64,000 nt of DNA from the NCBI GenBank assembly GCA_965279515.1, contig CBDIID010000003.1, positions 2,400,001 to 2,464,000 of the forward strand. Direction: 5' to 3'. The notes beneath the pieces were generated by a model. It was not told where the DNA came from and did no database searches. It saw only the letters and a list, made by a program, of their open reading frames with translations. The first letter of the stretch is position 1. Each line of letters opens with the position of its first letter. Below, piece by piece: positions 44,799 to 64,000 of this stretch. Position numbers and translations under genes: made by a program. This DNA comes from Turneriella sp. (GTDB lineage Bacteria; Spirochaetota; Leptospiria; Turneriellales; Turneriellaceae).

Positions 44799-44859
44799 TC
44801 TCAAATTATTTACGGCACGTCCCGTTAAAACACACAGCCTCGGGCTATTTGGCCCAGCA

Positions 44860-44931
44860 GCCCTCGTAGCTCAGTGGATAGAGCGTTGGTCTCCGAAGCC
44901 ATGTGCGCAGGTTCGATTCCTGCCGAGGGCA
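44860..44931 (+). tRNA. tRNA-Arg (anticodon CCG)
   Basis: Acceptor stem GCCCTCG/CGAGGGC, D arm AGCTCAGTGGATAGAGC, anticodon loop CT-CCG-AA, T loop GGTTCGATTCC; CCA not encoded. Confidence 0.95.
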
Positions 44932-45026
44932 CATATCGATGCTTCGACATTCGGCTTGCGGCATTACTCGGGATCGTCCCACTGCTTTTGCCCGCTTCGA
45001 TCTTGCGATTTGTATCGCTGGGCGCC

Positions 45027-45160
45027 CCCGTCTCATCCGCAATCCAGCACCGAAAGCCGTTGTTGTGCTCGAACTTGCGCAGAGGAACCGACTCGGTTTC
45101 TCTTCATCCTGTGCTGCGCGAAGACGCTTCTTTCGGAATGCCCGGCGAAAAGAGTTGCCT
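45027..45160 (-). pseudogene. Internally deleted relic of the DUF3024-like gene at 45635-46000
   Basis: Four collinear blocks match that gene at DNA level (QLFSPGIPKEA; AAQDEEKPSRF; KFEHNNGF; WIADETG); ATG changed to AGG. Confidence 0.8.
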
Positions 45161-45178
45161 ATTGATTAGCCTACTACC

Positions 45179-45613
45179 TCACCATCCGGCACTGACTAAC
45201 ACTGCCAAAGCATCGCGCTCGATATCCGCGTCGGAAACCCGTCGGCGCTTTCCCGTCACCAGCCGCGAACGAAAGATGCCCGTGGCATCGTCCTGAAAAT
45301 GGCGCAGTACGGCTGGAAAGCGCTCTGCCGCTGGGGCCAGGGCAAAGCGCCGCCACTTGCGGCTCGCATCGATGCAGTAAAGGTGCCACTTGCCGTCTTG
45401 GTAGAGAAACTTGGCCGCATCACGGCCTGTGAAATCCCCGTTTTCCGCGACGAATTCTTCCGCAATGATAAACGCATTGCCGCGACGAAACCAGTAAATC
45501 CGATCTCTCTCTCCGCGGCGCTTTCTTTGCGCATGGCGCACGTATGCGTCGAGGTGTGCAGACACGATTACCATTAGGTCGGTAGGGATGGACGGGCGAA
45601 AGAGTGTAAGCAT
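45179..45613 (-). CDS. DUF3024-like protein, paralogue 2
   Basis: WHLYCIDASRKWRRF and DDATGIF motifs. Confidence 0.72.
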   Translation of the reverse strand: MLTLFRPSIPTDLMVIVSAHLDAYVRHAQRKRRGERDRIYWFRRGNAFIIAEEFVAENGDFTGRDAAKFLYQDGKWHLYCIDASRKWRRFALAPAAERFPAVLRHFQDDATGIFRSRLVTGKRRRVSDADIERDALAVLVSAGW

Positions 45614-45634
45614 ATTTTCAATCTTGCTGCGGGC

Positions 45635-46000
45635 CTATCCCCTGAATATCCCGGTCTCATCCGCAAGCCAGTGCCGGAACACAGCATCAAAACTCTTCGC
45701 CGCCTTCGCAGGCACATACCTTCGCCAGGTACGGCTGGCGTCCAGACAGTAAAGCAGCCAGAAACCGTTGTCGAACTCAAACTTGCCCGAGTCGCGCCGT
45801 GTCAATTGACCGTCTTGTGTGACAAACTCTTCGGAAAGTATCACCGTCTTGCCCTTTCGCGCCCAGAAGAACCGACTTGGCTGCTCTTCATCTTTCGCTG
45901 CAGCGCGGCGTTTTTTCTCTACCCGCTTGCAGTAGGCATCGAGCCGTGTCATCGCGTCGGTGAAGGCTTCTTTCGGAATGGATGGCGCGAAGAGTTGCAT
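45635..46000 (-). CDS. DUF3024-like protein, paralogue 1
   Basis: WLLYCLDASRTWRRY and DETGIFRG; start reassigned to MQLFAPS by alignment with the paralogue. Confidence 0.72.
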   Translation of the reverse strand: MQLFAPSIPKEAFTDAMTRLDAYCKRVEKKRRAAAKDEEQPSRFFWARKGKTVILSEEFVTQDGQLTRRDSGKFEFDNGFWLLYCLDASRTWRRYVPAKAAKSFDAVFRHWLADETGIFRG

Positions 46001-46016
46001 CGGTGTCAGTGTCAGC

Positions 46017-46610
46017 TTACTTAAACTGAATATCCCTTTGAATATCTTCAACGGACTTCATGACCGTTGCGTCCGCGATCTTCTCTTCGACGGAACCCGG
46101 GAAAGCAAAAGGCATGCCGAAGATTAGTAAAATCTGATTCAGCTGCGTCATAGGTTCGGTATATACGTATTCTTTTAAAACCTGATTTCCCTTGTATACT
46201 TTCACTTTGGTGACAATATCCTTACTGTTCCAGGAGGGAATGATGCCGACAGTGATAATACCGAGCCCGTTCAAAAAGCCGTTAAAAAAAGTATCCTTGG
46301 AAACCGGCTCCCATTTATACGTGATCAGGTAGCCTGTAGCCATACTGTCTTTATCCGTAATGCTCACCGACAGATTGGCCGCTTTAAAGTGTTTTTCAGC
46401 GGATTCTTTGAGTGCTTTTTCCTGAAAACTTCCGGCGATGCCGGCTTTCACATAGATGCTGACAGGCTGCTGTACTTTAGACTGAATTGGCGACAGCTTT
46501 TCCGGCGCCTGAATGTTGTGTCCGCGCCAGCCGATGCAATTTGCGACTAACAGAATAGCCCCAAACAGGCTAAAAAAGCCGTAACGCTTTAAAAAAGATC
46601 GGTTTTCCAC
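46017..46610 (-). CDS. Putative lipoprotein (cassette-like gene)
   Basis: GGAG RBS, GTG start, ILLVAN-C lipobox, LGIITVGIIP hydrophobic segment. Confidence 0.72.
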   Translation of the reverse strand: MENRSFLKRYGFFSLFGAILLVANCIGWRGHNIQAPEKLSPIQSKVQQPVSIYVKAGIAGSFQEKALKESAEKHFKAANLSVSITDKDSMATGYLITYKWEPVSKDTFFNGFLNGLGIITVGIIPSWNSKDIVTKVKVYKGNQVLKEYVYTEPMTQLNQILLIFGMPFAFPGSVEEKIADATVMKSVEDIQRDIQFK

Positions 46611-46630
46611 ATATTCTCCATAGTTTTCTC

Positions 46631-46648
46631 TTTGTATCTTATGATACC
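46631..46648. promoter_or_regulatory. Shared 18-bp leader motif TTTGTATCTTATGATACC (operator-like), copy 1
   Basis: Identical to 48279-48296; contains inverted repeat GTATC-N4-GATAC; about 20 bp upstream of a start codon. Confidence 0.65.
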
Positions 46649-46662
46649 TGTATATTCATCGC

Positions 46663-46731
46663 GCCCAATCGCTCGCTTACCTGAAGTTTTCGAAGGCAAC
46701 TTAGCCTTGCGTCAGGTAAGCGCGGTTGGGC
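46663..46731 (-). mobile_element. attC-like recombination site 2 (69 bp, damaged R' core)
   Basis: Minus strand: GCCCAAC-CG-CGCTTACCTGA...TCAGGTAAGCG-AGC-G(A)TTGGGC; begins 18 bp after a stop codon. Confidence 0.68.
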
Positions 46732-46749
46732 TGATGCGCGGCCGGGAGC

Positions 46750-47478
46750 TTACTTCCCTTTCTTCTTCGCTGCAGGTTTCTTGCCTGCTGCAGGTTTCGC
46801 CTCTTCGGCTGGTGCTGCATACGGATCAGCGTTTGTTGCGGCTGGTGCCGGCGCAGCATACGGATCTTTGGCGCTGTCGTTTGAAGATGTTGTTCCAAAC
46901 ACATAACCCGCACCAAACTGCGCATACAGACCAGACTTGAAATCACGCGTGCTGCCGACTCCGCCTATGTCAGCGCCGAATTCAAAAACCTCGTAAAGAA
47001 ACGTGCCTTTCAGAAAAACACTGTCTACAGGAAACACTTTGATACCGCCGCCTACAACAATGCCAGTACCAAAGCGGCTTGAACCCGTCACCTCCGCACC
47101 ATTCAGCGTTCCCTTAGTAGCGTATTTAATCTGCGAACCCGGGCTGAAGAAGAATGCAAACCGTGAAATGCGGTAGTTGAATTCGAAGAGCAAGCTCAGC
47201 ATATATTCCATCTGTGAAAAACCACTCAACTCGCCGCTGCTCGTAGTCGCCTTGCTGACCGTGTTTAAAAGCAGAGAATAATTCATGCCAAAATGGAAAC
47301 CCTGCTTAGTGGGTTCATCCGTAAATGAAATACCTCCGCCGAATTTGGTAAACTTCTGTGAAGGTGTCTTATACTCAGTTTCCTGATAGTTACCCAGAAC
47401 ACCCAGGCCGAAATTAGCAAACACCAGTTGTGGTGCGAGTAATGCAGCACACAGAATTAATTTTTTGATTTTTTTCAT
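46750..47478 (-). CDS. Outer-membrane beta-barrel protein with Pro/Ala/Lys-rich tail
   Basis: AGGAG RBS, signal peptide, amphipathic strands ending YAQFGAGYVF, then DPYAAP x2 and KPAA x2. Confidence 0.72.
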   Translation of the reverse strand: MKKIKKLILCAALLAPQLVFANFGLGVLGNYQETEYKTPSQKFTKFGGGISFTDEPTKQGFHFGMNYSLLLNTVSKATTSSGELSGFSQMEYMLSLLFEFNYRISRFAFFFSPGSQIKYATKGTLNGAEVTGSSRFGTGIVVGGGIKVFPVDSVFLKGTFLYEVFEFGADIGGVGSTRDFKSGLYAQFGAGYVFGTTSSNDSAKDPYAAPAPAATNADPYAAPAEEAKPAAGKKPAAKKKGK

Positions 47479-47502
47479 ATCTTCTCCTATAACTTATTTT
47501 AA

Positions 47503-48255
47503 CTATTTTGCTTCTTTGAGCTTCGCAAAGATCAGATCAACCGTGCGCGCATAGACATGCTTCTGCTTGATTTTTGTGAAATTTGCAACATCACCGGCAC
47601 CCGTGACGTCGAGCGGCGGATCGATCGCACCGGCACCGCTAAAAATGCGTTCTCCCGTGCGGTCGTAGATCACAATACCCGTGCCCATAAGAGCCTTGTC
47701 CTGTTGAATAACAAACACAACCTTGCTGAACGACAGCGCAATCGCATCAACATTCAGTTTTTCGCAAAAATAGACCGCGAGTTTTGACAAGTCCGCTTTT
47801 TCCAGATGCTTGCCGAATTCACCCTCCGGCGCATCGATGAAATTCTTCTCTCCGCTGGCTTGTGTTACGGAAAACTCGTTTTTGTAGGCGGCAACCGGGA
47901 AATCTTTAAAACCATCGTTTTCAGCTGTTGCATACGCTTTTGTCAGTTGCTTGCCCGACAAAACCGTCGCGTTTAATTCTGTCGCCAGTTTTTTTGTCGC
48001 AATGTCGCGGTACTGATCCACCACACCGGCATCGACCTTATTGAGCTCGCCTGCTATTGCGGCAAATTTTGCCTCCGTGGCACCCTGCTGAAGGCCCGAC
48101 ATGCTTGTAACGGCAGCCTTTTCTATCAGCGTTTCCAGAAGCGCGATTTTTTTGATCGCTACCAGCTTCTCTTTCGAAGCCACGACCTTAACAGTCGAAC
48201 AGCCCATGAGCGCAAATAAGGCAACTGCGCCGGGAATCCATAGTCTTCTCTTCAT
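47503..48255 (-). CDS. Putative lipoprotein
   Basis: GGGAG RBS; MKRRLWIPGAVALFALMG-C lipobox. Confidence 0.75.
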   Translation of the reverse strand: MKRRLWIPGAVALFALMGCSTVKVVASKEKLVAIKKIALLETLIEKAAVTSMSGLQQGATEAKFAAIAGELNKVDAGVVDQYRDIATKKLATELNATVLSGKQLTKAYATAENDGFKDFPVAAYKNEFSVTQASGEKNFIDAPEGEFGKHLEKADLSKLAVYFCEKLNVDAIALSFSKVVFVIQQDKALMGTGIVIYDRTGERIFSGAGAIDPPLDVTGAGDVANFTKIKQKHVYARTVDLIFAKLKEAK

Positions 48256-48278
48256 TCAATTCTCCCTTGATAAGTTTA

Positions 48279-48296
48279 TTTGTATCTTATGATACC
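48279..48296. promoter_or_regulatory. Shared 18-bp leader motif TTTGTATCTTATGATACC, copy 2
   Basis: Identical to 46631-46648; about 23 bp upstream of a start codon. Confidence 0.65.
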
Positions 48297-48379
48297 GTTT
48301 TCACAACCGGAATATATTCAAATATTTTTCGCCAGCCACTCTCCGAAGACGGAGACGCGAAATGCGTCACCATCATGGC

Positions 48380-48469
48380 GCCCAACGTTGGTTTACGCGA
48401 AGTTGCGTAGCAATTTGCGGCGATGGGTGAGCGCAGTCGAACCCGGAGCCCGCGTAAACCCGGTTGGGC
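48380..48469 (-). mobile_element. attC-like recombination site 1 (90 bp)
   Basis: Minus strand: GCCCAAC (RYYYAAC)-CG-GGTTTACGCG...CGCGTAAACC-AAC-GTTGGGC (GTTRRRY), with central hairpins; downstream of a gene 3' end. Confidence 0.78.
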
Positions 48470-48541
48470 GACGTGATGACGCGCGGGAGGGTTCGGATAT
48501 CCGAACGATTTGTCTTGTTTTCGCGTGGAATGTGCTGCGCT

Positions 48542-49669
48542 TCATTTCTCATACTCTATGTATGCATCAAACACCCATTGGTCTTTGCCGATTTCAACCC
48601 AATGTCCTTTCTTACCATCAATCTCTACATAATCACCAACTTGACCTACTGAAAGTTTAGTTCCCTTGGCAATGAGTCCAACTTTTTCTGCTTCTATGTT
48701 CGGCTTTTTTCGTACATTTAGGCCGCTTTGGGGCACCGCAGTGGCGCGCTGACTATTTTTTTCAAAACCCTGGAAGACTCTACGAAATTCTTCATTGTCA
48801 AATTTCTGGATGCAATACCAGTACTCAGTGCTGTCTGCCAGCGAAGGCACAAACCGTTCTTTACCGGCATATTCGCGCCGCTGTTTTATTGTGCCATGGC
48901 TGCGGAGTTCGCCAGAGTTAAGAAGGGTAAATTTGAAATTGATATTGAAGTCGACGTAGATATCGCTAAAGCCATAATGTTTCAGCTGAGCGGTTTCGCA
49001 AGATCTCCTGCATTCACCGGGTGTGCTCCATTTTTCCCAATCTACGCAAGCGTCTTTCAGAAAATTACCTTTTGGCAACTCCCGGCGACGACCACACAAG
49101 CCACTTGATCCATCCGCGCAACGTGAACATGGTGAGCCGTCTTTATAAATTCCGCTAACAACTAAGCTCTTACTATCATCTGTGTACCATCTGAGATCAC
49201 GCCATTCGTCGTGTTCACCCCAGCGTACAGCTCTGTGATTTGGCAAAAGCCAAAAAGAAGAACTCTGCGAAGCTGATAAATATATGTGTCCAGCATTCAA
49301 ATCCTTTAATGAATCTGAATTCAGACATTTGCTCTTATCAATATCATAATCTGGAACAAAGATATACCCAGCTTTATTCTCGTATTTAGCACTTATCCAA
49401 CGACCCCATGCGCCATTCTTTCTTTCAAAGTTACCAACTATGTTACCTTTTTCAACTTTCGTCCCCTTCGGAATATATGCGAGAATTTTCCGAGGCTGAC
49501 CATTAACAGAACTGATTCGTTTATCACCTATGTTCCAAAACTCTGTTTTTTCGCCAACGGTATAGTAACTGTCTGATTTTTCAGCTCGCAGGCAACATCC
49601 CAAGCTGATAAAAAAAAATATCTTTGTCAACTTTAGAAAAATTAACTTACTACGATTTCTACCGCCCAT
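48542..49669 (-). CDS. Exported protein with two SH3b-like domains and a Cys-rich core; candidate immunity protein
   Basis: Signal/lipobox-like FFFISLG-C; GLNVRKKPNIEAEKVGLIAKGTKL...WVEIG...WVFDAY; AT-rich; 11-nt overlap with the giant gene. Confidence 0.75.
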   Translation of the reverse strand: MGGRNRSKLIFLKLTKIFFFISLGCCLRAEKSDSYYTVGEKTEFWNIGDKRISSVNGQPRKILAYIPKGTKVEKGNIVGNFERKNGAWGRWISAKYENKAGYIFVPDYDIDKSKCLNSDSLKDLNAGHIYLSASQSSSFWLLPNHRAVRWGEHDEWRDLRWYTDDSKSLVVSGIYKDGSPCSRCADGSSGLCGRRRELPKGNFLKDACVDWEKWSTPGECRRSCETAQLKHYGFSDIYVDFNINFKFTLLNSGELRSHGTIKQRREYAGKERFVPSLADSTEYWYCIQKFDNEEFRRVFQGFEKNSQRATAVPQSGLNVRKKPNIEAEKVGLIAKGTKLSVGQVGDYVEIDGKKGHWVEIGKDQWVFDAYIEYEK

Positions 49670-52600
49670 AATACCCGAGCCCCCAGACTACATTTTTTCG
49701 ATTTGGTGACGTTGGTACTCGGTTTTCAAGGGTACCGGTTGAATTCCGGTGATATAATTGCCATCCCCTGTCTTCGCTACCATGACTGCCACCAGGCATT
49801 GGAGTTGAAATAACTGTGCTGGCATCTAAATGTGTCCAGCCACCGTTTTGGTCATTGGATACCTGATCCCAAACCTTAAAGTATTGTTGCCCATTAATTG
49901 TTTCGTTACCCACGATGTTCATTGTGTGGCCAGAAACGCGAATCATCGGATAGCGGCCTTCAGCTAGTTCATTCTGAACAAGCTGTCTCCAATGATCAGG
50001 ATTATCGGCCACACTGCGGAATTCCCATGTTTGACCCGCAGAATTCGTTTCTCTGCCTTGCCATCTCAGATCACTGCCCAACGCATCGGCAAAAAGATCG
50101 TAGTTGCTCAGGTAGCCGTCGCTCGGATTTATTGAACCATTAGCAGTACCTAGCCCGTAAGCTTCTGGCAAGGTGATGTTCCTACCCATCGCCGATGCTA
50201 GATTGGTTCTCGCTCCATTCAAATTGCATGCTTCAGCACCCGCACTGCTAGGTGTCAAATTAAACTGATTAAAGTACTCCGGCGTAAATCCGTTTGCCCC
50301 TGTTGCCAAGCCATCAACAACCCTCGGCGTACTAGAGCCAAATATAGAATTCCATGCACGCTGAAATATGTTCGGCCTATTTGCTTCCGCAGCGGCTCGC
50401 TGCGCTTCTCCCTGCCATGCTGCCAGACTTGCCCGCCCCTCAGCTTGAAGTTGCGTCTGCTGGGCTGTTGTCATCTTGCCACTATGCCAGTCGCTATAAA
50501 GCGTATCCAGAGTTTGGTTCAATTGTGCCTTCTCTTTGTCTGAAAGATTCATGCTCTCTATCATCTTCTGTGCTGTTGGCCGATCTTTCGCATGATAAGC
50601 AGCTTTAACAAGCTCCGCACGTTTCTGCATCATTTGCGCTTGTGCCGCTGCAGCTTCGCCAAACATGACGTTCGTCAATTTCACTTCTTTGCCGTATAGT
50701 TCATGGTTTGCAACAATCAAATCGGTCTCACCAATGTCTTTCCATGTGCCATCAGGGAACATAACTACCAAACCACCGTCGATGTTTGAAAGCGTACCAC
50801 CAAGCTTTGTGGCTACGTAAGCGTGCTCCCTTGTGCCACCGACTTTCTTTGCGTATTCGGTATTTCCTTGGGCAAGTGCACCGTAATCCACCTTATTCCC
50901 GGTGCTGCCGCTCAATGCGGCGATTTTCATCGCCTCAACTTGTGCATTTGTATTAAATCCTGAACCAGAAACGAAGTTTACCGTTTTTTGGAAGGTGTTG
51001 CTGATTCCCGTGCCAAGATCAGAGAAGAAATTCTTCGTCGAATTCCATGCACTGCTCGCACCCCTTCCAATAGCACTTCCCGTATCGCCAACCGCGCTTC
51101 CTATCGCTTTGAACCCATCCAGAATGCCACCCAGCACATCGTTATCCTTCCCTTCCTCACGTCTCGCCGCGATGATCGCACCGCCTCCGATCAGCTCACG
51201 GAATGGTTGCTGGTTGGCCGGTAGACTATTTCGATCGGCACCGCGGTTATTTACCATCTTTGCCATCTCACCGCCCGCATAAGTCCCCAGCGTATTGAAG
51301 ATACCTTCTGGCCCGTACGCATTCCACGCGTTCTTGTCTCCCAAGAGCGATGCAGTAATCGTATTCGCGAGGCGACCCACCTGCGTACCGACCAAATCTG
51401 ACTTGCTCATGTTACCTGCGTAACCCGATGCCACCGTCGATGCCATATTTGCCGCGAACGATGTGCCTGCCTTTTCCCAATTGTAGGCTTTCATCGAACC
51501 GTCATCGTTAAACTGGAAGCCGGACCCCAGTGCGTTGAAGGTCGTTGAAACAGTAGAGCCGGCAGTGCCGCCGCCTAAACCGTATTTGGCGTTGATGCCC
51601 GCACCGAGCATAGAGAAGCCACCCTGAACCAGTGCGCTGAAACCCGCCCCGCGGCTGGGGCCTGAATAGCCCACGCTGCCGTCGGATTGCATCTGAAAAC
51701 CGCTCATCAGATAGCTCGTTGTCTGCTGCGCAGCCGCGCCGACAACCGCATTACCTACTTTAGCTAGATTACTTGTCTCGCCGAAATAATTCAGACCACC
51801 CAGAAAACTGCCTGCAAAGGCGCCCGCTCCCTGAATTAGGCCCATACCCAGCTGACCCCAGCCATTGTTACCCGAAGCAAACGCGGCGCCGGTCTGTACT
51901 ACTGTGTTGGCGCTAGCCATAGCCAGGCTTACCCACATATTGCCCGTCAAGGCTCCGGTAACCGCGCTCGCAACGTTCATCGTTGTGTAGACGACCTGTT
52001 TCTTATCCGCAAGCCGTGTTTCTTCTTCATGTAAACCGCGGTAGGTGAGCTTATTCCATTTACTGCCATTAGCCCAACCACCCAATTCTCCAGAACCTTC
52101 GCTCAACAAATCGCCACCCGGACCTTTCCACTGCGCGATATCGCCGACATAGTCGCCATAGAGGCCCTTTTTGCTGCCGTCGCCACCGACAATCTTGAAC
52201 GCCTGCTCTAACGCCATCGTCTGTACCTCGAAGAACAGTTTCACGTCGGTATCGCGGCCGGTTTCAAGAAATTTGACCATATCGTCGCTCGAAAGCCGCG
52301 TCATACCCGCTTCGGTCATAGCACGCTCCATCATGCCCTCGATATTGGCGTTGCGGTAGGCGACAAATTCGTAATCACCCCACATACCTTCGTCCTTGGT
52401 GTACGTACCACCCTGTTGTGTGTAGCCCGAAGATACGGCCTGTGCCGTAAGCGCGATAGCGACTTTCTCGTCATTTTTCCGGAGCGATTCCTTGAAACTC
52501 TCTATCATCTTCTTAAAGTTTTCGTAGAGTTTGACGTTGTTGAGGATCGCCATTTTCTTTGAAAACTCTGCCATATTCTGTGTGAAGTTTTCTTCCAGAT

Positions 52601-55600
52601 TGCCGTTGTTAAAGCCCTTGAAGTGCGTCGCGTTACCTAATTCCAGCGTCACGTTAAACGCATTGATCGATTTATTGATTTGGCTGAAGATCTTCTCCGA
52701 AGATGGGCGGGTGCTCTCGAAATCGTTCATTGCCTGCGCAACCAGATCAGTTACATTAATTTCGGGTATCTCCGTCTGAATATTGGCGTTGGCTGCCAGA
52801 ACGCGGAGTCTCTCATTCAGGCTTGAACCTGTTGCAGCCAGCATCTTATCCAGCGACTGTTCCATAGCCGCAGTCTTGATCTCTTGCTGCCAGTTTTGTT
52901 TTTCCGCCATGAAAGTTCTGATCTTGTCGTCCCACTGTTTCTTGCCGGCTTCGATCTTGCGGTTCGTGTCGATCTCCCACTGGCGCCACGCCTTCAGGAA
53001 TTTCTGTTCTGACGCATTGAAAGATTCTGTGCCCCGGCTTTCGATGGTTGTCGCCAGATTCTCCCAGCGTGCGCGGGCAGCGTCGAGTTCAGCGCGACGT
53101 AAATCCCACTGCTGCGTCACAAGAGAGGCATTTTGCTGCTGTTGTACCTGGAAGACATTCGTCGAGTTTTCCTGGTAATCGCCCGCAAGAACCTGAAAGC
53201 CCTTGAACTGCTTGCCTTGATTGTCCGCATAGTCCCAAAGTGACCACATGGTTTTCTCGCGCTCGTTGAGCATCAACGTCTGCTCGTGCGCTCCACCTGC
53301 GGTCAAATAGCTTTGTTTCAGGTTGGCACGGAGTGAGTCAGTGTGGTTTGAAGTCAGATTCATTACACGACCCAGATCGTAAGTATCCCACACCCCACCC
53401 GCCGCGATCGGCGCGGTGATGTATTTCGCATAGGTATCGGTCATCGTACCATTATGCGACATCTTCTTGATTTTTATGTACTTATCTCCGTTCAGCCAGT
53501 AGAAGCCACCCTGCATCGTCGACTCCAGATTCTGTGTCGTCGTCTGTGAGGGATCATAAAGGTCTCCGGCTGCCGTCGCGAATTCAGGCGTCTCTGTCAG
53601 CGCCGTGATATTTGAAGCCCGCGCCGCGTCGTTAGTGCAGCTACCCGTCGGCGGGCAGTGCGCGCCCGCCGTGTAAGTTACGCCGGTCGAGTCGATGTAG
53701 TTTTGCTTCGTGTCCCTGACATAGCGCAGGTCGCTGTCTGAAAGGGCGTATTTCGCGTTCTGCCCGCCCCATTGCACAAGGCGATCTTTCAAGACCTGTT
53801 GGCTGGGCGCCTTCGTAAAATAATCCACCGCCGCCTGCGCGATCAGATATTCTTCTTCCTTTTGTTTGATGACGCCTAGTTTGTTACTGATCTGATCCCG
53901 CTGGAAGTTCAGGCCATTAATCTTATTCTGCCAGGTATTATCCTGATCGTTATACTGCATCACCGCCACTGTAATTGCGATGGTGGCCGGAATAATCAGG
54001 CCAAACCCAACTTTCGTATTAAAAGCGCCTGCGGCAAGAAATGGCCCCGCAAAAGCCCCGCCAAAGAGCGAAGCCGCCAATGCAGCAGCCGTCGCGTACA
54101 TACCCTTGGCTATGGCTAAGAATACGCCACCTGCAGCAATGACCGGGGTCATGACGCCTATCGTCCAGTTCATGAAATGCCGCTTTTCTTCCCGCTTCTC
54201 CCATTCCTGAATCATCGAAGCATTGGCGGCTTTAAAAGCGCCGTAATCGCCGGAGTTCAGCTGGCCAGCGGCAGCATAGGCTCTGAACTGATCTAAAAGA
54301 GCTTTATCTGCGGGGTTCAGCCCGTTATAGGCTGCCAGCTTCTGATTTCGATCGTTATGAACGGCAGCCTCATTCATCCCGTTTTCCGTCGTGCCCGCGA
54401 TGAAAATATTTCCACCCGATTCGTAGGCGCCCTCGGTATAGAACATGCCTGAAAGTACATCCATCAAGGCCCCATTGCCACCTGATGCTTTGATTGCCAT
54501 CAAAGTCGCAATGGACTTATCCCGATTGTAAACCTGCGGCTTGTTATTGGGGTCGGTTGGTTTAATCAGATTATCTTTGGCTTCATTATACGCTGCCAGC
54601 TTTAGTGCCGCGATGGCTTTACGTTTTTCGATTTCAGCATTCAGTATCTCCTGCGCCTTTTTGACGCGGATCATCCGCTCGCTTTCGAGTACGTATTCCT
54701 TACGCGCATCGATGAAATTCTGGTACGTCGCGCGCATTGCTGTTTCCTGCGCGGTTAAAGGCAGGCCCTGGTCGATCTTGGTGATCAGGTCAGAGAGCTG
54801 CGTCAGGGTATCCTGCGTGCGTACTTCGTCCGCTTTCGCCGTTAGCTGCGCCTGTGTCTGGTCGTAGCGCTGCTTCGCAGAGAGATACATCTGGTAAGCG
54901 TCGGCTTCGTTGGCGCTCGATGCCTGCGTTGATGAAGCGAAGAGGTAAGCCGTGGTGGCGAAATCTTTCACCGCCGCCTTTTTTTCATAGTCGGAGTTCT
55001 CTACCTGGAAGTTTTTGAATGCCCCCGACATGGTATTCAGCGCATCCGTATAGTAGGTAAAATGCTGCACATAGGTATTCTTCAGAGCCGTTTGCGCCGC
55101 AATCTGTGTATTGTATGCCGCTTCGGCCGCGTTCAGGTCTGCATAGACCTGGTTAAACTGCTGGTTGAGAAACCCGCGCGCGTTCGAACCTAAGAGCACA
55201 TCGCGGTGCGCCGCTTCGGCGAGCTTCTGCCGCGAATCGCGCACTGCAGCGGTGTTTTGCTCGATCGCTTTCTGTTTACCCAGGACGACATTTTCAGAAA
55301 GCCCTGTGGTCGCGTTATCGTCGAGTAACTGCGTATTGCGGCTGTCTTTAACCGCCGTGACCGCGTTTTTCAGGTCGTCGATACTACCGCCACCCTTGAA
55401 GGTAGTAATCGCACCAAGAAGGCCAGCCACCACCTGCGCGCGCCCGTTATTCGCAGAGGCAGCGTCGGTGGTCTCGGCCATCGCGAAGATACTCGCTAAA
55501 GCACGGTTCATACCCGACACAGCGGTAAGATAGTTGTTGGCAAGGTGCTCGCTGAACGCGACGGTTAAATCGGGATTTGCATCGGTGTTTACCTTATTAA

Positions 55601-58600: not shown

Positions 58601-61600
58601 CCTTGTTCTGCGCATACGCGGCCTGGCGCGCTTCTAAGAATTGCTTCTGAATCTTTGCACTGTAAAGTTGCTCGCGCACTTCCTTGAGCTGGCCTGATAA
58701 AGCAAAGAGTTCCGTCAGTGAATCGTGTACCGCTGCATCGGGCCCGACCGCAGTCACGCTAAAGAGATTCAGCAAGTCTTTGTTCTGTGTTTTAGAGAGT
58801 TCCGCAACAAAAGCGGAATACGCGCCGAGCGGAGAGGTGCCGTTTGCCGTGTCGTAATTTGACATCGCATTATTGATGTTCTGGTAAAACGCCAGAACCT
58901 TGGCAATATTCTTTAACCGCTCGGTTTCCAGAGTGCGCGTATTATCGGTGTTGGTATTGATCGTTGCAACAGCAGTTTGGCGGTTCGCAATATAGGCCTG
59001 TGCACTTAAATACTCAATTAGGGAGCTTTCCAGGCCAGAGATCGCCTGTTTCAGGTTGTCTGGTACGGTTTTGCGTTCAGCCTGCGCACGATCGACGTAC
59101 TGCGTCAGCACCGCCACCCAGTTCTCCAGAGACGAACCAGACTGATTACCCCCCAGAAGCACGGAGATATCCGCACTCGCAGGTGTTGTTCCGGGGAGGT
59201 TATTCGCAGTTAAGAATGCCGTATCGACCAGCGGTTGACCCGACACGTCGCGGCGAATATTACCATATGCATCTTTCTGGTAAAAGCCGATAACCTGCTT
59301 GATGGTATCCGCAAGGCCTTGCTCGGCCGCAGCCTGTTCTGCGCGGTAGCTTGCATCCTTAACGGCAGACCATTCGGAGTTTAAGCGGCGGTAACCTTCT
59401 TCTTCAATACGGTACTGCCAGAGCGAGTTTTGCACGAACGGCGCCATCACAAGAGATGATCCCCGGCTGATAAGCTCTGACGCATACGCCCGTAGTGGAT
59501 CGATCGTTGTGCGTAGGGCACCCGCGTCGATATTCAGTTGATCGATGTCATTTTGTAGTGCCGTCTTCTCATTTGTCTTCTGCGTGATTTCGTTATTAAT
59601 AGCGGTCAATTCACCACCAGATACCGTGAGCGCCAAAGCTGTGAGCGTTGCGATATCGCCGTCGATTCCCTGTATCGCGACGGCTTTTGTTTGAATCTGA
59701 CCGATCTTGGCTGCGAGCTGCGTTTCATACGTACGCGCTTCGCGGTCTTTGGAAAGGTATTGTTCCTTCGCCCAGATTGCACCGTAATTCAGGTTGAGCT
59801 TCTGCAGCTCTTGCGTCATGCCATTGCGGGCATTGGTCAGATCGGCGACCAGATTCACCGTACTGCCTTCGTTAACGTAATGGCCGATATACGACTGTAT
59901 GATGAAACGCGTGTCATCCGCCTGCTGTGGCGTCAGGGAATTCAGGTAACTTGTAAGAGCTGCCTGCGCAGCCGTCGCATTCGGCGCGCCTAAGATCGTT
60001 GTCAGTTGATTGCGCAGAGCACCGCGCGTTGAATTAAAGTTGGTTACCCAGGCATCTGTCGCTGATTGCGGCGCCTGGCTCGTTACGTCTGAGAAAATCT
60101 GATTTTTTTGCTGGTAAAACTGCACCTCCTCCAGGAATTTTTGCCATTTTTGTTCGATTGTCTGCCCACCGGGGGGCGGTATCGATGACAGGTTGTCGAT
60201 GCGGGCTTTAACGTTCGCGTCGGTTAAGTAGCTCCTCACGATCCACAGTTTTTCGAGTGTTACATTAAAGCTTGTATCCGTCTTACCTTCGAAGAGACCA
60301 AAATCATAGCTGGAACCATTCACCCAGGCATTGCCGGCATTGTTGCGCTGATTGCCACCGAGAATCTGCGCAATCTGATCGTCGACTGTCTTAAGCAGCG
60401 TTTCGCTGTTCGAAACCGCCTGATTATTGCCGGTGATAACGGCGCTGACGAGGCCTTGCAGGTGATTCACAGCAGCTTCGTTGAGGCGTTCATACTGAGC
60501 ATTGGTACGCGTCACCGCGTCGCCGACTTCTTTCTGCAGCGTCGTCGCATTTAATATGGCCGTCTGCCCGCCCAGGTTCGACTGGGTGTCCAAAAGGTAG
60601 TCCAGGGCTTCGGAGTTAATTTTCTTCTCCATGCGCAGGCTAACGATAAAGCCGTCGATGTTCTGCCGCAGGGCTTCGGTTGCGATCAGTAATTCTTTTT
60701 CTTTCTGTGCTATCGTCGCGGCATTGCCGCCACCAATGGCTGTTTGCAGCGCAGTCTGCGCAAGTACATAGGCGTTCTTGCGTGTTTCAATACCGTCGAA
60801 AAGATCGATCGTCTGCGACCAGTTGACAACAGGGCCCGTACGCTTCAGAAAATCGTTTTCTTTCGCCTTGAAGTCGGCGGCAATCGTCGCAATATCCTTA
60901 CCGGCAAAGCCCGCTGTGAGCATCGTGTCGAGCTCCGCCGTCTGTGTACGCGCGACTTTCAGGTTTTCAATGGATTGAAGTACTTTCGTCGTGAATCCTA
61001 AATCTTTCTGCGCTTCGGTGCGCTCTCTGAGCAGGCGGTAATAATCGAGCTCGGAGGCGGAGACCACGTCTTTCATTTCAGTCACGCCGTTAACGAGCAC
61101 CATACGGTTGGTTACAGCAGCCAGCTGCTGTCCCATGTTCGATATTTCGGTCGCGATAATCGCTTGCGAATTAGGCAATGCGATAACGTCGAAATTCTTT
61201 TTCGTCTGACGATAGATATCCTGTTGCAAATCGTATGCCGCTTTTGCGCCGGCGACAACAACAGCCTGCGCTTCGATCAGGCTCTTATCGGCCTGAAGCT
61301 GCGCGCCGAGTTCCGTCAGGTTCATGAGAAGGGGATTTCCCGGCACCATAGCGCCTTTAACGTCGGCGATGATCGCAGCGAGTTCTGAAAAACGGTAATT
61401 GCCCTGAAGGTCAGTGAGGGATTGATTTAAGGCGTTTGCCGCGGCTTTCAGCTGCGTCCAGCGCTGCTGTTTTTCGAGAAGCGCGTCGCCGGTAAGACCG
61501 ACGGTCCACTCGTTCTTCAGCTGGATGAGCTTATCGGAAAACTGCTGCAGATAATGCACGTTGTTTGCAGTGCCCGAGGGCGTTGCCGGATTTGTTCCAC

Positions 61601-63974
61601 GCCACTGGTCAAACGCGGTAATGAGACCGTTTAAATCTGTACCGACATTCACCGCGCCAGCTCCGATAACAGTACCCAACGCGTTCTTTTCGGTAACAAT
61701 CTGCCCTTCGCGGGTGTAGATGGTATTGAGATCAATGCCGCGCGCCGCGAGCAGGGTATTGAATTCCGTATCGCGTGTTGCCGCATTGGTTTTAACCAGT
61801 GGATTTAAGGCGATATCGCCCTTCAATATCTTGTACTTGATTTCGGCAAGGTCGGTATAGACTTTCTGGATGTCCGCAGATTCTTTCGTGACCTGCGCGA
61901 GTTCAAGACCCGCACCCGAAGCATTCGCTACGCGCGCGTAGTTATAGACCGCTTCAGACGTCGCAAGTTGCTGAGCGAGAAAATTGCGGCGATTCCGTAG
62001 GAGCTCCCACTCATATTCGGCCTGTGTCATGAGGTAGGGATCGTTATCGTTACCCGTCAGATAGTTGCCGCCATAGGGCGTATTGAAGTAGGCCGTGACG
62101 CGGTTAAAAAGCGACTGGTCAACGTTCATGCCCTGCGTGAGCAGGGTCTGCACCTGCGTCTGCAGCGCTGCTTTTTTCGACGCTTCATCGGGGTAGGTTG
62201 CGTTGTCGTTATTAATCGTATTCCAGAGCGCGAGGATATCCGCCTTAACATTGGCGTGTTCATCGCTGTAGGCATTTACTTTCGCAGTGACGTCGGCAAA
62301 GGCATAGGTGCCACTGAACCAGCTTCCTAAATCGGCACCAAGATACTGGCTCGAGACGGCATAGGTATCGGCTCTCTGGATTTCACGCCGGAGATCGCGG
62401 TCATACAGAACATAGGCTTCGGTAAAGGTATCGAGTTTCGCCTGCAACGCGGTCTTGAAGCCCGATGCTCCCAAAGCCTGGATTTCAGAGGGCACAGTGC
62501 CAGCAAAAACACGTCTGTCTACGAGGTAACCGCTGTCGGCATTCTGTGAAAGCATCGTGCTCTGCATTTCGGTGCGCACATTGGCAAGCAGGGTATTAAA
62601 TGTGCCGAGCGCGGAGTTAAAATAGCCGATCTGCTGAGTATAAAAGTCCCTGATTTCCTGTTGTGATGTATCAGGCAAGACAGAGCTGTAGAAAGCAACA
62701 GCATCCTGCGCCTGTGACAGGGCAGAGCCGCCCGTGGTCACCATGTCTATGAGCTTATCGTTATAACCGTTCCAGCGGTCGTTTTCCGTGACCAGAAGGC
62801 GTTGAAATTCCGCATCGGCTCTTTGCCGTTCGTCAGCAAACTGCACATACTTCTGATCCCAGAGGGTGCGGCCTTGCTGAATCTGTGTCCTGACGTCTGT
62901 CATCCATTTCTCTTTCTCTGCGCGTATACGTTCGTACTGCGCCTTCCAGATGTCGCCGCCGTCTTTTAAGAGCTTCTTTTCCTTGTTCGCCCATTCGATG
63001 CGCTTCTCCATCAGGTCTTCTTCGGCGACCTCCCACGATTTTAGCCCTTGACTTACAATCGCCTCAACCTGACGTTGCCAGTCTGTGCCGAGATTGTTCA
63101 TGTCGGCAGATTGCTGGCCTAAAGCGGCGTTCACCGCTTGCTGCAAGGCCTGGGTCGTCATGCCAGTGACACTGTCCCAGGTTTGCTTTAAGAGTTGGTC
63201 GGTGATATACGCTGCGGATTCTTTCTCTGAATCCGATTTAGCACTGCCCAGGTCTGAGCGTTTCTCTGCGATATACTGATTACGTGCGCGGCGCAGGTAA
63301 TAGTTCTGCTTAAGTTCATACTCCGACTTAATCGATGCTTCCACCTTGGCGAGTTCTGCATCGAATGCAGTTCGCTCGGCACCCGAAAGCGCGAGATTTG
63401 CTGATGCAATACGGTTGACCTCTGCGGTCAAAAGAGATTGAAACTGCGTTTCTACCGCTGCATTGTCGCCCTGAACCGTTGCATCCCAGAGTGCAAGGTT
63501 AAGATCGGTGCCCAAAACCGCCGTACGTGCTTTGGTAATAATCTGCCGGTACTTTTCTTCGTCGACTTCGGCAACGAAAGCGTTGCCAACAATAGCCTTC
63601 CACTTGCCCCGCTCCGAGACAACCCTGTCTGCGGCCGCGGAAAGCCAGTCGAGCTTTGCCTGATCGAACACTGCCTGTGCGGCATTCTTCTGCACTAACT
63701 TCTGCGCGTCATCGAGGCCCGTCGTTTCATCGACCGTCTTTTTCTCTGCGTCCAGAACAGAACGCGCTTCGGATTCCCACTGTGCTTCTGAGACGCCTAA
63801 CCCCTGATCGACAAAATTCTGCCAAGTAGCTTCCGTCGACAGCGTCTTGCCGCGGTCGAAGTAATTTTCCATTTGTGTTTTACCGCGCTCGTCGAAGGTC
63901 TTATATTGTGGCGCGGCGGCGAGAGCCGTCGTAAAAGGCAGTATCGCAAATAGATATATAAAGACAAAATTCAA
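49659..63974 (-). CDS. Giant (>=4771 aa) secreted helical protein with C-terminal C39-like cysteine peptidase domain; resembles Leptospira TIGR04388-type large proteins; candidate polymorphic toxin
   Basis: Uninterrupted 14.3-kb ORF; signal peptide; coiled coils; hydrophobic Gly/Ala segments; YFNQ...ACN, GHTMNIVG, KVWD at the C-terminus; frame is open to the window edge, so the true start may be further upstream. Confidence 0.8.
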   Translation of the reverse strand: MNFVFIYLFAILPFTTALAAAPQYKTFDERGKTQMENYFDRGKTLSTEATWQNFVDQGLGVSEAQWESEARSVLDAEKKTVDETTGLDDAQKLVQKNAAQAVFDQAKLDWLSAAADRVVSERGKWKAIVGNAFVAEVDEEKYRQIITKARTAVLGTDLNLALWDATVQGDNAAVETQFQSLLTAEVNRIASANLALSGAERTAFDAELAKVEASIKSEYELKQNYYLRRARNQYIAEKRSDLGSAKSDSEKESAAYITDQLLKQTWDSVTGMTTQALQQAVNAALGQQSADMNNLGTDWQRQVEAIVSQGLKSWEVAEEDLMEKRIEWANKEKKLLKDGGDIWKAQYERIRAEKEKWMTDVRTQIQQGRTLWDQKYVQFADERQRADAEFQRLLVTENDRWNGYNDKLIDMVTTGGSALSQAQDAVAFYSSVLPDTSQQEIRDFYTQQIGYFNSALGTFNTLLANVRTEMQSTMLSQNADSGYLVDRRVFAGTVPSEIQALGASGFKTALQAKLDTFTEAYVLYDRDLRREIQRADTYAVSSQYLGADLGSWFSGTYAFADVTAKVNAYSDEHANVKADILALWNTINNDNATYPDEASKKAALQTQVQTLLTQGMNVDQSLFNRVTAYFNTPYGGNYLTGNDNDPYLMTQAEYEWELLRNRRNFLAQQLATSEAVYNYARVANASGAGLELAQVTKESADIQKVYTDLAEIKYKILKGDIALNPLVKTNAATRDTEFNTLLAARGIDLNTIYTREGQIVTEKNALGTVIGAGAVNVGTDLNGLITAFDQWRGTNPATPSGTANNVHYLQQFSDKLIQLKNEWTVGLTGDALLEKQQRWTQLKAAANALNQSLTDLQGNYRFSELAAIIADVKGAMVPGNPLLMNLTELGAQLQADKSLIEAQAVVVAGAKAAYDLQQDIYRQTKKNFDVIALPNSQAIIATEISNMGQQLAAVTNRMVLVNGVTEMKDVVSASELDYYRLLRERTEAQKDLGFTTKVLQSIENLKVARTQTAELDTMLTAGFAGKDIATIAADFKAKENDFLKRTGPVVNWSQTIDLFDGIETRKNAYVLAQTALQTAIGGGNAATIAQKEKELLIATEALRQNIDGFIVSLRMEKKINSEALDYLLDTQSNLGGQTAILNATTLQKEVGDAVTRTNAQYERLNEAAVNHLQGLVSAVITGNNQAVSNSETLLKTVDDQIAQILGGNQRNNAGNAWVNGSSYDFGLFEGKTDTSFNVTLEKLWIVRSYLTDANVKARIDNLSSIPPPGGQTIEQKWQKFLEEVQFYQQKNQIFSDVTSQAPQSATDAWVTNFNSTRGALRNQLTTILGAPNATAAQAALTSYLNSLTPQQADDTRFIIQSYIGHYVNEGSTVNLVADLTNARNGMTQELQKLNLNYGAIWAKEQYLSKDREARTYETQLAAKIGQIQTKAVAIQGIDGDIATLTALALTVSGGELTAINNEITQKTNEKTALQNDIDQLNIDAGALRTTIDPLRAYASELISRGSSLVMAPFVQNSLWQYRIEEEGYRRLNSEWSAVKDASYRAEQAAAEQGLADTIKQVIGFYQKDAYGNIRRDVSGQPLVDTAFLTANNLPGTTPASADISVLLGGNQSGSSLENWVAVLTQYVDRAQAERKTVPDNLKQAISGLESSLIEYLSAQAYIANRQTAVATINTNTDNTRTLETERLKNIAKVLAFYQNINNAMSNYDTANGTSPLGAYSAFVAELSKTQNKDLLNLFSVTAVGPDAAVHDSLTELFALSGQLKEVREQLYSAKIQKQFLEARQAAYAQNKVLSVSEFIAGVDVLKTAAIQTSITNITADANFVAGVTAYLTGSSASELYLSKLWDIVTANPVVGDPVTHAGSLKSMLLNALQGDAFTTQVKSELNALSPRDLYQAAGSAGASIDAFIAQQAVRADSFRTALDAYLNSIPGATTTATAIGLVNTWMANTANVPEMQQDYAAEIKYLMQGLNAGMPLGQFRTELTNFTALLANPSATEQQKFTDLARQSELTAALNRYHYASNFTAADYPVEVRNFILLRGYNDLNAAYQEFLRLKNSTIADEQNRASLNLSGHPQEMQRHFYLNDFYSFLDEGGAAGSGQALQDYLAGGGAKDTNGFIAQYLLSRKIDASVTGSDLLNEFRNIILHARHSALGTDLNPGLANQVDVNTEAKEFRTRILMAKFDDYLQTNNPAAGMNAAAFKTFFDTFLNDNTYRISGVELKDQLSGNIELVDFRNKAFAYYGLNNNGGGNLSVYMPSLYSGVMSAATFASDARVNADTLLPAALTAIANYKTTGQGYTNSLSDALKTVYLKQKLSENLALDAGMMTNAQIAQMISTSGYTISAAVEATLNTYFNDIALATKVAAGSAGQPPSPSQALFNLRLTATVENVFSADPVAKEGFIANRANLSALENASYSALEGASARVRDLAQNNEAGFMLAAWMTVLGLSLAGNAAANTFYNGLNPQNKTAFDDYALSLGTKLSAENRKFMGDYLTELTTYVSLPVSVSGILFKGDLSKSETTVRAAAEHLSTPALRAAATQNFNEFYKAFAQYMQGSGTGVTLGATTITAADFAKMAAELNTQEKGFFEAEQSRLTQFFNTIQETTAQRNKVARLMSDASLTNATFATDVSYEIKVAEALAQANLTAVTDAIGQKLKNNQAVTTGRQRVFGRNYAVADNLKRFAALRGDTANLANGGSLFLDYRSFVKSVADKQRVLFPNETPATLPAYLQGKTLKQNVLNGGAGYAGAALEAMFAAGTYGAQLVSDAAPVLPADQVSWTVGPDTFNANLQSINKVNTDANPDLTVAFSEHLANNYLTAVSGMNRALASIFAMAETTDAASANNGRAQVVAGLLGAITTFKGGGSIDDLKNAVTAVKDSRNTQLLDDNATTGLSENVVLGKQKAIEQNTAAVRDSRQKLAEAAHRDVLLGSNARGFLNQQFNQVYADLNAAEAAYNTQIAAQTALKNTYVQHFTYYTDALNTMSGAFKNFQVENSDYEKKAAVKDFATTAYLFASSTQASSANEADAYQMYLSAKQRYDQTQAQLTAKADEVRTQDTLTQLSDLITKIDQGLPLTAQETAMRATYQNFIDARKEYVLESERMIRVKKAQEILNAEIEKRKAIAALKLAAYNEAKDNLIKPTDPNNKPQVYNRDKSIATLMAIKASGGNGALMDVLSGMFYTEGAYESGGNIFIAGTTENGMNEAAVHNDRNQKLAAYNGLNPADKALLDQFRAYAAAGQLNSGDYGAFKAANASMIQEWEKREEKRHFMNWTIGVMTPVIAAGGVFLAIAKGMYATAAALAASLFGGAFAGPFLAAGAFNTKVGFGLIIPATIAITVAVMQYNDQDNTWQNKINGLNFQRDQISNKLGVIKQKEEEYLIAQAAVDYFTKAPSQQVLKDRLVQWGGQNAKYALSDSDLRYVRDTKQNYIDSTGVTYTAGAHCPPTGSCTNDAARASNITALTETPEFATAAGDLYDPSQTTTQNLESTMQGGFYWLNGDKYIKIKKMSHNGTMTDTYAKYITAPIAAGGVWDTYDLGRVMNLTSNHTDSLRANLKQSYLTAGGAHEQTLMLNEREKTMWSLWDYADNQGKQFKGFQVLAGDYQENSTNVFQVQQQQNASLVTQQWDLRRAELDAARARWENLATTIESRGTESFNASEQKFLKAWRQWEIDTNRKIEAGKKQWDDKIRTFMAEKQNWQQEIKTAAMEQSLDKMLAATGSSLNERLRVLAANANIQTEIPEINVTDLVAQAMNDFESTRPSSEKIFSQINKSINAFNVTLELGNATHFKGFNNGNLEENFTQNMAEFSKKMAILNNVKLYENFKKMIESFKESLRKNDEKVAIALTAQAVSSGYTQQGGTYTKDEGMWGDYEFVAYRNANIEGMMERAMTEAGMTRLSSDDMVKFLETGRDTDVKLFFEVQTMALEQAFKIVGGDGSKKGLYGDYVGDIAQWKGPGGDLLSEGSGELGGWANGSKWNKLTYRGLHEEETRLADKKQVVYTTMNVASAVTGALTGNMWVSLAMASANTVVQTGAAFASGNNGWGQLGMGLIQGAGAFAGSFLGGLNYFGETSNLAKVGNAVVGAAAQQTTSYLMSGFQMQSDGSVGYSGPSRGAGFSALVQGGFSMLGAGINAKYGLGGGTAGSTVSTTFNALGSGFQFNDDGSMKAYNWEKAGTSFAANMASTVASGYAGNMSKSDLVGTQVGRLANTITASLLGDKNAWNAYGPEGIFNTLGTYAGGEMAKMVNNRGADRNSLPANQQPFRELIGGGAIIAARREEGKDNDVLGGILDGFKAIGSAVGDTGSAIGRGASSAWNSTKNFFSDLGTGISNTFQKTVNFVSGSGFNTNAQVEAMKIAALSGSTGNKVDYGALAQGNTEYAKKVGGTREHAYVATKLGGTLSNIDGGLVVMFPDGTWKDIGETDLIVANHELYGKEVKLTNVMFGEAAAAQAQMMQKRAELVKAAYHAKDRPTAQKMIESMNLSDKEKAQLNQTLDTLYSDWHSGKMTTAQQTQLQAEGRASLAAWQGEAQRAAAEANRPNIFQRAWNSIFGSSTPRVVDGLATGANGFTPEYFNQFNLTPSSAGAEACNLNGARTNLASAMGRNITLPEAYGLGTANGSINPSDGYLSNYDLFADALGSDLRWQGRETNSAGQTWEFRSVADNPDHWRQLVQNELAEGRYPMIRVSGHTMNIVGNETINGQQYFKVWDQVSNDQNGGWTHLDASTVISTPMPGGSHGSEDRGWQLYHRNSTGTLENRVPTSPNRKNVVWGLGYYGR

Positions 63975-64000
63975 CAGGAAAGAAGTAAACCGAAAAAAGC

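Follow-up and report, generated by a model that had tools for sequence, protein, structure and literature searches.

A giant protein gene of Turneriella with polymorphic-toxin-like traits at the left end of a tRNA-Arg island, and two neighbouring hairpins that score within the noise of attC models

By what route do the variable genes that trail a giant, toxin-like gene reach their places? The question is raised by a 64,000-nt stretch of DNA from a Turneriella species (the window; contig C3 of genome G000, 2400001-2464000), in which the gene for a giant secreted protein is followed by genes for exported proteins, two hairpins that resemble the attC sites of integrons, and a tRNA gene. An initial annotation had proposed a new system here, with a toxin gene and its immunity gene heading an integron-type cassette array. 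The gene order that it listed, the co-orientation of the genes on the minus strand and the 3' end of the tRNA-Arg gene are all present where it had placed them (Table 1; coordinates are positions in the window unless prefixed G000:C3). We compared the locus with 34 genomes of the order (G000 included) and with 400 other genomes sampled from the phylum. The outcome makes it moderately probable that this is a polymorphic-toxin-like locus on a tRNA island, with modules swapped by homologous recombination. Loci of the polymorphic-toxin-like kind are already known, a large Leptospira protein among them, and an integron-linked system is not supported on present evidence.

The giant protein combines a conserved body with a replaceable end. 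The 4771 residues initially assigned to it correspond to a TTG start inside the window; an ATG lying 31 bases past the window yields 4790 residues, which is the length of the database copy, and the earlier figure is corrected to this value. A hydrophobic N-terminus is followed by about 3,250 residues rich in Ala, Leu, Gln and Asn and poor in proline, then by three hydrophobic helices, a conserved (pre-tip) domain, a glycine-rich stretch and a replaceable C-terminus of about 490 residues. The first 1400 residues have a paralogue in the same genome at 86% identity (locus B, the window locus being locus A) and partial genes in the relatives G032 and G023, and the giant gene is present in 3 of the 34 genomes of the order, G000 counted. 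At the DNA level, loci A and B are alike from the start of the gene to position 52153, beyond which they match only over 51 nt around a short leader and over two DUF3024 genes; the similarity of the window locus to the two relatives stops at 52008-52073. Among the four giant proteins, identity is 37-100% in most 50-column windows up to residue ~3990 and falls to 0-34% in all pairwise windows but one past residue ~4330. A conserved body with unrelated C-termini among close relatives, a trait of polymorphic toxins, is thus present at this locus.

The gene directly 3' of the giant also differs in all four loci. The encoded proteins (375, 114, 296 and 256 aa) show no link by BLASTP at 1e-3, and their genes lie -11, -4, +14 and -4 nt from the giant's stop. 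This next gene varies with the tip, as it does in polymorphic toxin loci. The tip of the G032 giant contains the PF07591 PT-HINT domain (80.4 bits, cut-off 27.7) and that of locus B a Pfam DUF7587 match of 28 bits. Downstream of a DUF3024 gene in G032, there is an orphan fragment, a 688-aa frame that duplicates the conserved pre-tip region and is cut off by the end of the contig. The pairing of a toxin tip with a partner and a tail of variable genes, as initially annotated, agrees with these four unrelated tips and next genes, the PT-HINT tip and the orphan fragment. In the phylum, a published link to polymorphic toxin systems exists for LA_3725, a large protein of Leptospira interrogans that has PF07591 and a membrane segment at its N-terminus (PMC4751964).

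Relatives of the pre-tip domain occur in 39 of the 400 other phylum genomes, at 19-30% identity and in open frames of 564-4582 aa; the 4,790-residue protein thereby joins a giant spirochaetal family that behaves like polymorphic toxins. The two paralogous loci of one genome, with a common body and a different tip and partner, amount to a natural experiment on export and tip exchange. These include 10 of the 75 genomes of family f8, and some genomes have two or three copies of it about 11 kb apart; on G147:C1 and G094:C1 a full-length frame is followed by shorter frames about 11 kb apart, an arrangement that resembles orphan modules. Locus B itself (G000:C3:2669600-2688242) holds a 4845-aa frame with a different tip, followed by 114-aa and 146-aa genes, a truncated DUF3467-like gene, a third copy of the leader with a 189-aa lipoprotein gene, two pairs of DUF3467-like and DUF3024 genes and a gene whose secreted product has ankyrin repeats; about 1.6 kb further on there are five clustered tRNA genes.

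The tip of the window giant resembles peptidases. Its last 300 residues have eight relatives among 1.84 billion representative proteins, some of them short and stand-alone; in one relative of 598 aa the domain follows a Hint-like segment (recognized by eye), and in another it closes a protein of 4737 aa. C27, H127, D147, D161 and D179 are invariant in all six aligned tip sequences. An AlphaFold2 model of the tip (pLDDT 86.7, pTM 0.86) found its best Foldseek matches in the PDB among UfSP, the C-terminal domain (CTD) of BtaeB (9jdd_A), staphopain and cathepsins, with TM scores of 0.35-0.47; one match reached E<=0.001 and many papain-like chains reached E<0.1. A sequence search of the tip against solved chains gave no match at E 1. 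The peptidase-like tip of the initial annotation is accordingly supported at the level of the predicted fold and the putative catalytic Cys, His and Asp residues, and we regard it as an undescribed papain-like tip family. A single-protein scan of genome contigs for loci encoding tip relatives confirmed none of 33 pattern matches.

The protein encoded next to the tip was described initially as overlapping, AT-rich and exported, and each of these points is borne out: it has 375 residues, an 11-nt overlap with the giant gene, a GC content of 0.43-0.44 in its region versus 0.53 in the genome, which makes its gene as AT-rich as the tip, and an export signal with a lipobox-like SLGC. It ends in an SH3b domain (Pfam SH3_3). 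No relative of it was found in a collection of 5.8 billion proteins, within the reach of the search tool, and its neighbours in the ESM Atlas are of the SH3b type only. A predicted complex of tip and 375-aa protein (score 0.01, mark 0.32) is evidence neither way. From its position and co-variation only, we regard the protein as a candidate immunity partner; its export would match a tip with an extracytoplasmic site of action. A drinking-water metagenome contains a 267-nt contig identical to 49067-49333, within this gene, and a 224-nt contig with four differences at 45127-45350, two pieces that are too little to place the organism or the locus there.

The locus as a whole sits on a genomic island. 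The last 14 bases of the tRNA-Arg gene (44919-44932), CCTGCCGAGGGCAC, occur only at G000:C3 2444919 and 2483597, and the 38,678 bases between these repeats have a GC content of 0.479, versus 0.531 for the contig. On contig C24 of the relative G023, a histidine kinase gene and tRNA-Arg(ccg) are followed directly by genes collinear with G000 2483823-2495011, at 74-95% protein identity. A border repeat, an empty site in a relative and a deviating composition all identify a 38.7-kb low-GC island at the 3' end of tRNA-Arg, of which the window region is the left end. The borders and the empty site in G023 indicate that the giant locus arrived, or was assembled, on the island. The rest of the island (G000:C3:2464100-2483610) encodes two AcrB-type pumps, a HlyD-type adaptor and an outer-membrane efflux protein, which make up a resistance-nodulation-division (RND) set, together with two Big_5 proteins, one that is FGE-sulfatase-like, and TPR, RDD and FHIPEP-like proteins.

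Between the 375-aa gene and the tRNA, the variable genes share a common leader. It consists of the 18-mer GGTATCATAAGATACAAA, about 15-20 nt of spacing, the ribosome-binding site GGAGAAT and the start codon, and the 18-mer holds the palindrome GTATC-ATAA-GATAC. In the genome there are exactly three copies, ahead of the 197-aa gene, the 250-aa gene and the 189-aa gene of locus B (G000:C3:2672435), and these three genes are mutually unrelated, yet all stand behind the one leader. With one or two changes, the 18-mer precedes an orthologous secreted-protein gene in G021 and G032 (C105); across the order its pattern gave 11 matches outside G000 versus 6 for a reversed control. To judge from this distribution it is a cis element of the genus, probably a promoter or operator, and it is not part of an attC site. 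A promoter and terminator consensus scan of the minus strand marked neither the 18-mer nor the hairpins. The DUF3024 genes fall into types a and b, which are about 45% identical to each other, and their locus A and locus B counterparts are 89% (a) and 81% (b) identical. A PADLOC scan linked both window genes weakly (22.8 and 25.3 bits) to PDC-S43, a candidate family. In locus B and in G023, an 88-aa DUF3467-like gene followed by a DUF3024 gene forms repeated pairs, and the leader with the 189-aa module of locus B sits where one 88-aa DUF3467-like copy is truncated. All break points between loci A and B fall in sequence common to both, namely the giant body, the 18-mer leader and the DUF3024 genes, as homologous recombination predicts.

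In the mechanism that we favour, the giant body would export and present the tip, which would be the active toxic part and would act outside the cytoplasm, damaging the envelopes of competitors or other extracytoplasmic targets, while the overlapping AT-rich exported SH3b protein would shield the producer. The leader-borne genes for lipoproteins and exported proteins and the DUF3024 genes would be variable passengers, which may serve as spare protection genes. New tips and modules would most likely enter via homologous recombination in common flanks, that is, in the giant body, the leader, and the DUF3024 and DUF3467-like genes. It is unlikely that an integron integrase drives the exchange. 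The hairpins are most likely palindromic intergenic elements copied along with the leader segment, and at most decayed attC relics.

The addition of modules by integron-like recombination, the central proposal of the initial annotation, bears directly on these hairpins. Under it, hairpins A and B would be true attC sites forming a small attC-site cluster that has no integron integrase (CALIN), with the 250- and 242-aa gene pair and perhaps the 197-aa gene as cassettes, and with an integrase that was lost or acted from another element. Their ends fit RYYYAAC/GTTRRRY, although one box of hairpin A (GCCCAAT) departs from AAC/GTT, and GCCCAAC and GTTGGGC are known as R boxes in class 1 cassettes. 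Their lengths of 69 and 90 nt fall within the 57-137 nt of the true sites that we collected; attC hairpins in general measure about 57-141 nt. Both hairpins are imperfect, with extra bases in the same arm, and fold at -23.1 (A) and -24.1 kcal/mol (core of B; DNA parameters). They are intergenic and 1.65 kb apart, within the 4-kb spacing of a CALIN, which counts only if the sites are attC. A rule scan for complementary RYYYAAY/RTTRRRY ends 42-142 nt apart with a strong hairpin returned three sites in the 4.84-Mb main contig, two of which are hairpins A and B (contigs C1 and C2 were covered by a stricter scan only). Applied to true arrays, the strict rule recovered 3 of 15 sites (L030) and 1 of 19 (L035), and a relaxed rule did no better; it is specific yet insensitive, and prefers hairpins with fewer imperfections than true attC have. 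AT-rich and lacking relatives, the enclosed genes would suit cassettes. An 8,887-nt contig spans 45827-50300 unchanged in all three sequencing runs (two samples of one study), with no joints seen, although contigs drop rare forms.

Covariance scores place both hairpins within the noise. Our true attC set comprised 58 sites of three families that lie beside integrase genes in five spirochaete genomes, with an added set of six class 1 cassette sites from two plasmids. Model R1 was made from 31 spirochaete sites and model R2 from 17 sites of four kinds (6 of them class 1) with the R/L-box pairs set by hand; both were built here and miss some true attC families. In 24 kb of the window, R1 gave hairpin B 12.7 bits (E 0.36) and left hairpin A unreported, and R2 gave B 13.7 bits and A 8.0 bits, on the minus strand and with exact borders. 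Hairpin B is the top R2 hit in these 24 kb and comes close to the weakest of four held-out sites (21.5, 20.9, 18.9 and 13.9 bits) that directly follow cassette genes in an integron on a cyanobacterial plasmid. Against this, R2 gives 11.5, 11.1 and 10.1 bits to unrelated positions within these 24 kb, and a position in the giant locus of another genome attains 13.9 bits; genome-wide, neither R1 at E 10 nor R2 at E 1 reports a hit. Other held-out true sites scored well above: 24 sites of G077 at 20.6-77 bits, a site beside the G141 integrase at 29.3 bits (filters off) and the aadA22 cassette at 47.6 bits. An Rfam scan of 44000-50500 at E 10 found the tRNA only, which is uninformative on attC, since Rfam contains no attC family and matches no true attC array either.

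The geometry departs from that of true sites as well. In an alignment of 17 of these, spacers of about 5 nt are unpaired (columns 8-12 and 139-143) and one base is bulged within the inner box (column 16); in 31 aligned true sites just AAC/GTT of the R box is paired, as is expected where R' has its outer half in the following cassette. Hairpins A and B, by comparison, have perfectly paired inner stems, with their asymmetry in or beside the spacer: A has a 2-base bulge in the + strand 5' arm with the adjoining spacer fully paired, and B has unpaired spacers of 3 and 2 nt, with pairing that runs outward past the R box into 16-nt arms (88%). The strand signals conflict, the bulges marking the + strand as top strand and the model score the minus strand, and the supposed cassette consists of two genes with their own leader. 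Neither hairpin occurs at locus B or at the loci of both relatives, nor in 93 kb of giant loci from three further genomes. Two arrays of true sites, L035 (G349) and L039 (G355), show what is expected of integrase-made junctions, the R'' of each cassette being complementary to the R' of the preceding site; many of their cassettes open with the flank GAC[CG]CTTCG a few bases past R'. To judge by which side each array is on, the integrase gene is co-oriented with the cassettes in G316 and G349 and divergent in G364.

An integron integrase was sought with TIGR02249. The best match in G000, which is 99.99% complete, reaches 93 bits versus a cut-off of 265, and across the order all 34 genomes stay below the cut-off, which 41 of 401 phylum genomes reach as a control. 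The four PF00589 tyrosine recombinases of G000 all lie far off; none is in the window, as initially noted. The lack of IntI in genome and order, the noise-level scores, the absence of the hairpins from related loci and the break points in common sequence together speak against integron-like addition of modules. The two sites that were called attC-like are real hairpins with R-box-like ends that fail to score as attC; they are not dispersed repeats either, and neither the tips nor the gene order is invariant among relatives. By definition, a CALIN comprises at least two attC sites, within 4 kb, that have no intI close by, and it is also found in genomes without integron integrases (Cury et al. 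2016, PMC4889954). It is in view of this and of the limits of our models that we assign true or relic attC sites a low probability. It strikes us as quite improbable that the hairpins are worn but genuine attC and that an integrase acting in trans placed exported-protein cassettes, with promoter-leaders of their own, in the immunity tail of a toxin locus whose lineage keeps no integron. If true, it would tie the way in which toxin/immunity loci diversify to the traffic of integron cassettes. For integron calls in general, the hairpins serve as a caution that a perfect RYYYAAC/GTTRRRY hairpin pair is insufficient for calling an array.

The hairpins might instead belong, as ends or targets, to some other mobile or recombination system that moved the leader-gene modules, for example a non-autonomous element of small size or a site for one of the four tyrosine recombinases. 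The two are alike only in the outer ~20 nt and a flank, with unrelated interiors; a half-site-like CAGCCCAAAC stands at the break of the truncated DUF3467-like gene just ahead of the third leader copy, and GGCCCAA stands ahead of a leader copy in G032. These half-site likenesses are, however, short and could be chance, there are just two copies of the hairpin in the genome, no target-site duplication was seen, and no transposase or recombinase is nearby, which leaves this account very improbable. A different objection concerns the giant itself, which could be a structural protein of the surface or envelope, or an adhesin, with an end that varies for binding or antigenic variation and with unrelated envelope genes downstream. 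A very long, helical-looking body with internal hydrophobic helices would suit an envelope-spanning structure, the window giant matches no toxin family, and the downstream genes do encode exported proteins. We nevertheless consider it unlikely, given the PT-HINT domain ahead of the G032 tip and the Hint-like segment ahead of a tip relative, the invariant Cys, His and Asp residues in a peptidase fold, and the coupling of each tip to its own 3' gene with overlapping stop and start, along with the orphan fragment of G032.

Several points weigh against the polymorphic-toxin-like explanation with homologous exchange. It gives no explanation for hairpin ends that fit the attC R-box consensus in a pair almost unique in the genome, nor for bulged bases that lie on one strand in both hairpins, as in true attC. 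The negative model searches are tempered by the finding that three of four IntI-bearing test genomes (G141, G143 and G040) give nothing by R1 at E<=0.01 and no genome-scale match by R2 at E<=1; their integrase genes are near contig ends, and the arrays are perhaps unassembled. At E 0.1 the window giant falls into none of the Pfam, NCBIfam or PADLOC families, and it lacks a PT-HINT. At 375 aa, the candidate partner is long as immunity proteins go, and it lacks relatives in which its co-occurrence with the tip could be checked. No integrase is among the 22 island proteins scanned, all four PF00589 proteins being encoded elsewhere. The anatomy, the way the tips vary, the fold, the island borders and the lack of IntI are shown here; toxicity, protection, the export route and the role of the hairpins are what we infer.

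Comparison with known systems places the locus near, and apart from, several of them. In CdiA and Rhs loci, tip and partner vary jointly, and spare downstream modules keep a piece of the pre-tip region that allows homologous exchange. The orphan fragment of G032 is a like feature; the present locus differs in that Pfam finds no FHA/TPS, Rhs/YD or PAAR domain, no short conserved motif at the tip border was identified, and the window itself holds no orphan fragment. With PT-HINT polymorphic toxins (Zhang et al. 2012, PMC3482391) and LA_3725 (PMC4751964) it shares an exported protein of huge size whose body is conserved and whose C-terminus can be replaced, a tip-specific gene directly 3', and, in the relative G032, an orphan C-terminal fragment and PT-HINT. 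The ankyrin-repeat gene of locus B recalls the ankyrin immunity proteins (Imm-ank) named among the immunity proteins in PMC3482391. The window giant differs in having no PT-HINT and no named toxin or trafficking domain, its body matches by Pfam no repeat type in the tables of that paper, and its candidate partner is a 375-aa exported SH3b protein. In the text searched, the same paper mentions neither integrons nor DUF3024, and a literature search found no paper joining Turneriella with an integron. CALIN (PMC4889954) resemble the locus in two RYYYAAC/GTTRRRY hairpins less than 4 kb apart, co-oriented genes and the lack of a nearby intI; they are set apart from it by hairpins that lie within the noise of two attC models, with a non-canonical spacer and bulge and pairing past the R box, by an order in which IntI was not found and by an enclosed unit of two genes with its own leader. 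The tip, finally, shares its predicted fold and Cys/His/Asp set with the BtaeB CTD (in complex with BtaiB, PDB 9jdd), UfSP and staphopain, and the title of the 9jdd entry describes such a fold as an antibacterial type VI effector with its cognate immunity protein BtaiB; it differs in an identity of only 10-15%, at the TM scores given above, and in matching no solved chain by sequence.

Table 1. Features of the giant-gene locus, in order of position in the window
Feature	Position	Strand	Remarks
tRNA-Arg (anticodon CCG)	44860-44932	+	3' end faces the giant-gene locus
Degraded third DUF3024a-type copy	44950-45170	-	Pieces of both ends, internal deletions; direct repeats versus 45635-46051
DUF3024 gene, type b, 144 aa	45179-45613	-	Pfam 39.8 bits
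DUF3024 gene, type a	45635-46051	-	Pfam 34.5 bits; likely start ATG at 46000
197-aa lipoprotein candidate	46017-46610	-	Weak LIC12231/Lp29 lipoprotein matches, below cut-off (NCBIfam/PADLOC scans)
18-mer leader GGTATCATAAGATACAAA	46631-46648	-	21 nt ahead of the start of the 197-aa gene; then GGAGAAT
Hairpin A	46663-46731		+ strand GCCCAAT...GTTGGGC, 69 nt
242-aa exported protein, K/A/P-rich tail	46750-47478	-	From translation; no Pfam family
250-aa lipoprotein candidate	47503-48255	-	No relative in 400 other phylum genomes
18-mer leader, second copy	48279-48296	-	24 nt ahead of the start of the 250-aa gene
Hairpin B	48371-48478		Core 48380-48469, GCCCAAC...GTTGGGC, 90 nt
375-aa exported protein, C-terminal SH3_3	48542-49669	-	11-nt overlap with the giant gene's stop; candidate immunity partner
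Giant gene, 4790 aa	49659-64000 and on to start at 64031	-	Hydrophobic N-terminus, residues 12-41
Tip domain, last 215 aa	49662-50306	-	Invariant Cys, His, Asp; papain-like predicted fold
Variable C-terminal ~490 residues	49662-51134	-	Unrelated among four compared giant genes
Glycine-rich stretch (17% Gly, residues 4001-4400)	51135-52030	-	Partly conserved only
Pre-tip conserved domain	52062-53870	-	Common to the family of giant frames
Three hydrophobic helices, residues 3289-3360 of 4790	53952-54167	-	

Among the smaller products of the locus, which were initially annotated as lipoproteins and an outer-membrane barrel, the lipoprotein label holds to the extent that the lipobox-like N-termini LMGC and VANC, besides the SLGC of the 375-aa protein, are legible in the translations. 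The barrel label of the 242-aa protein could not be confirmed, its best NCBIfam match being omptin at 13.8 bits, and Pfam assigns no family to the giant, the 250-aa or the 242-aa protein. Between the stop of the 375-aa gene and hairpin B, at 48491-48506, lies a perfect small palindrome, GTTCGGATATCCGAAC, which the terminator scan marked on the + strand only.

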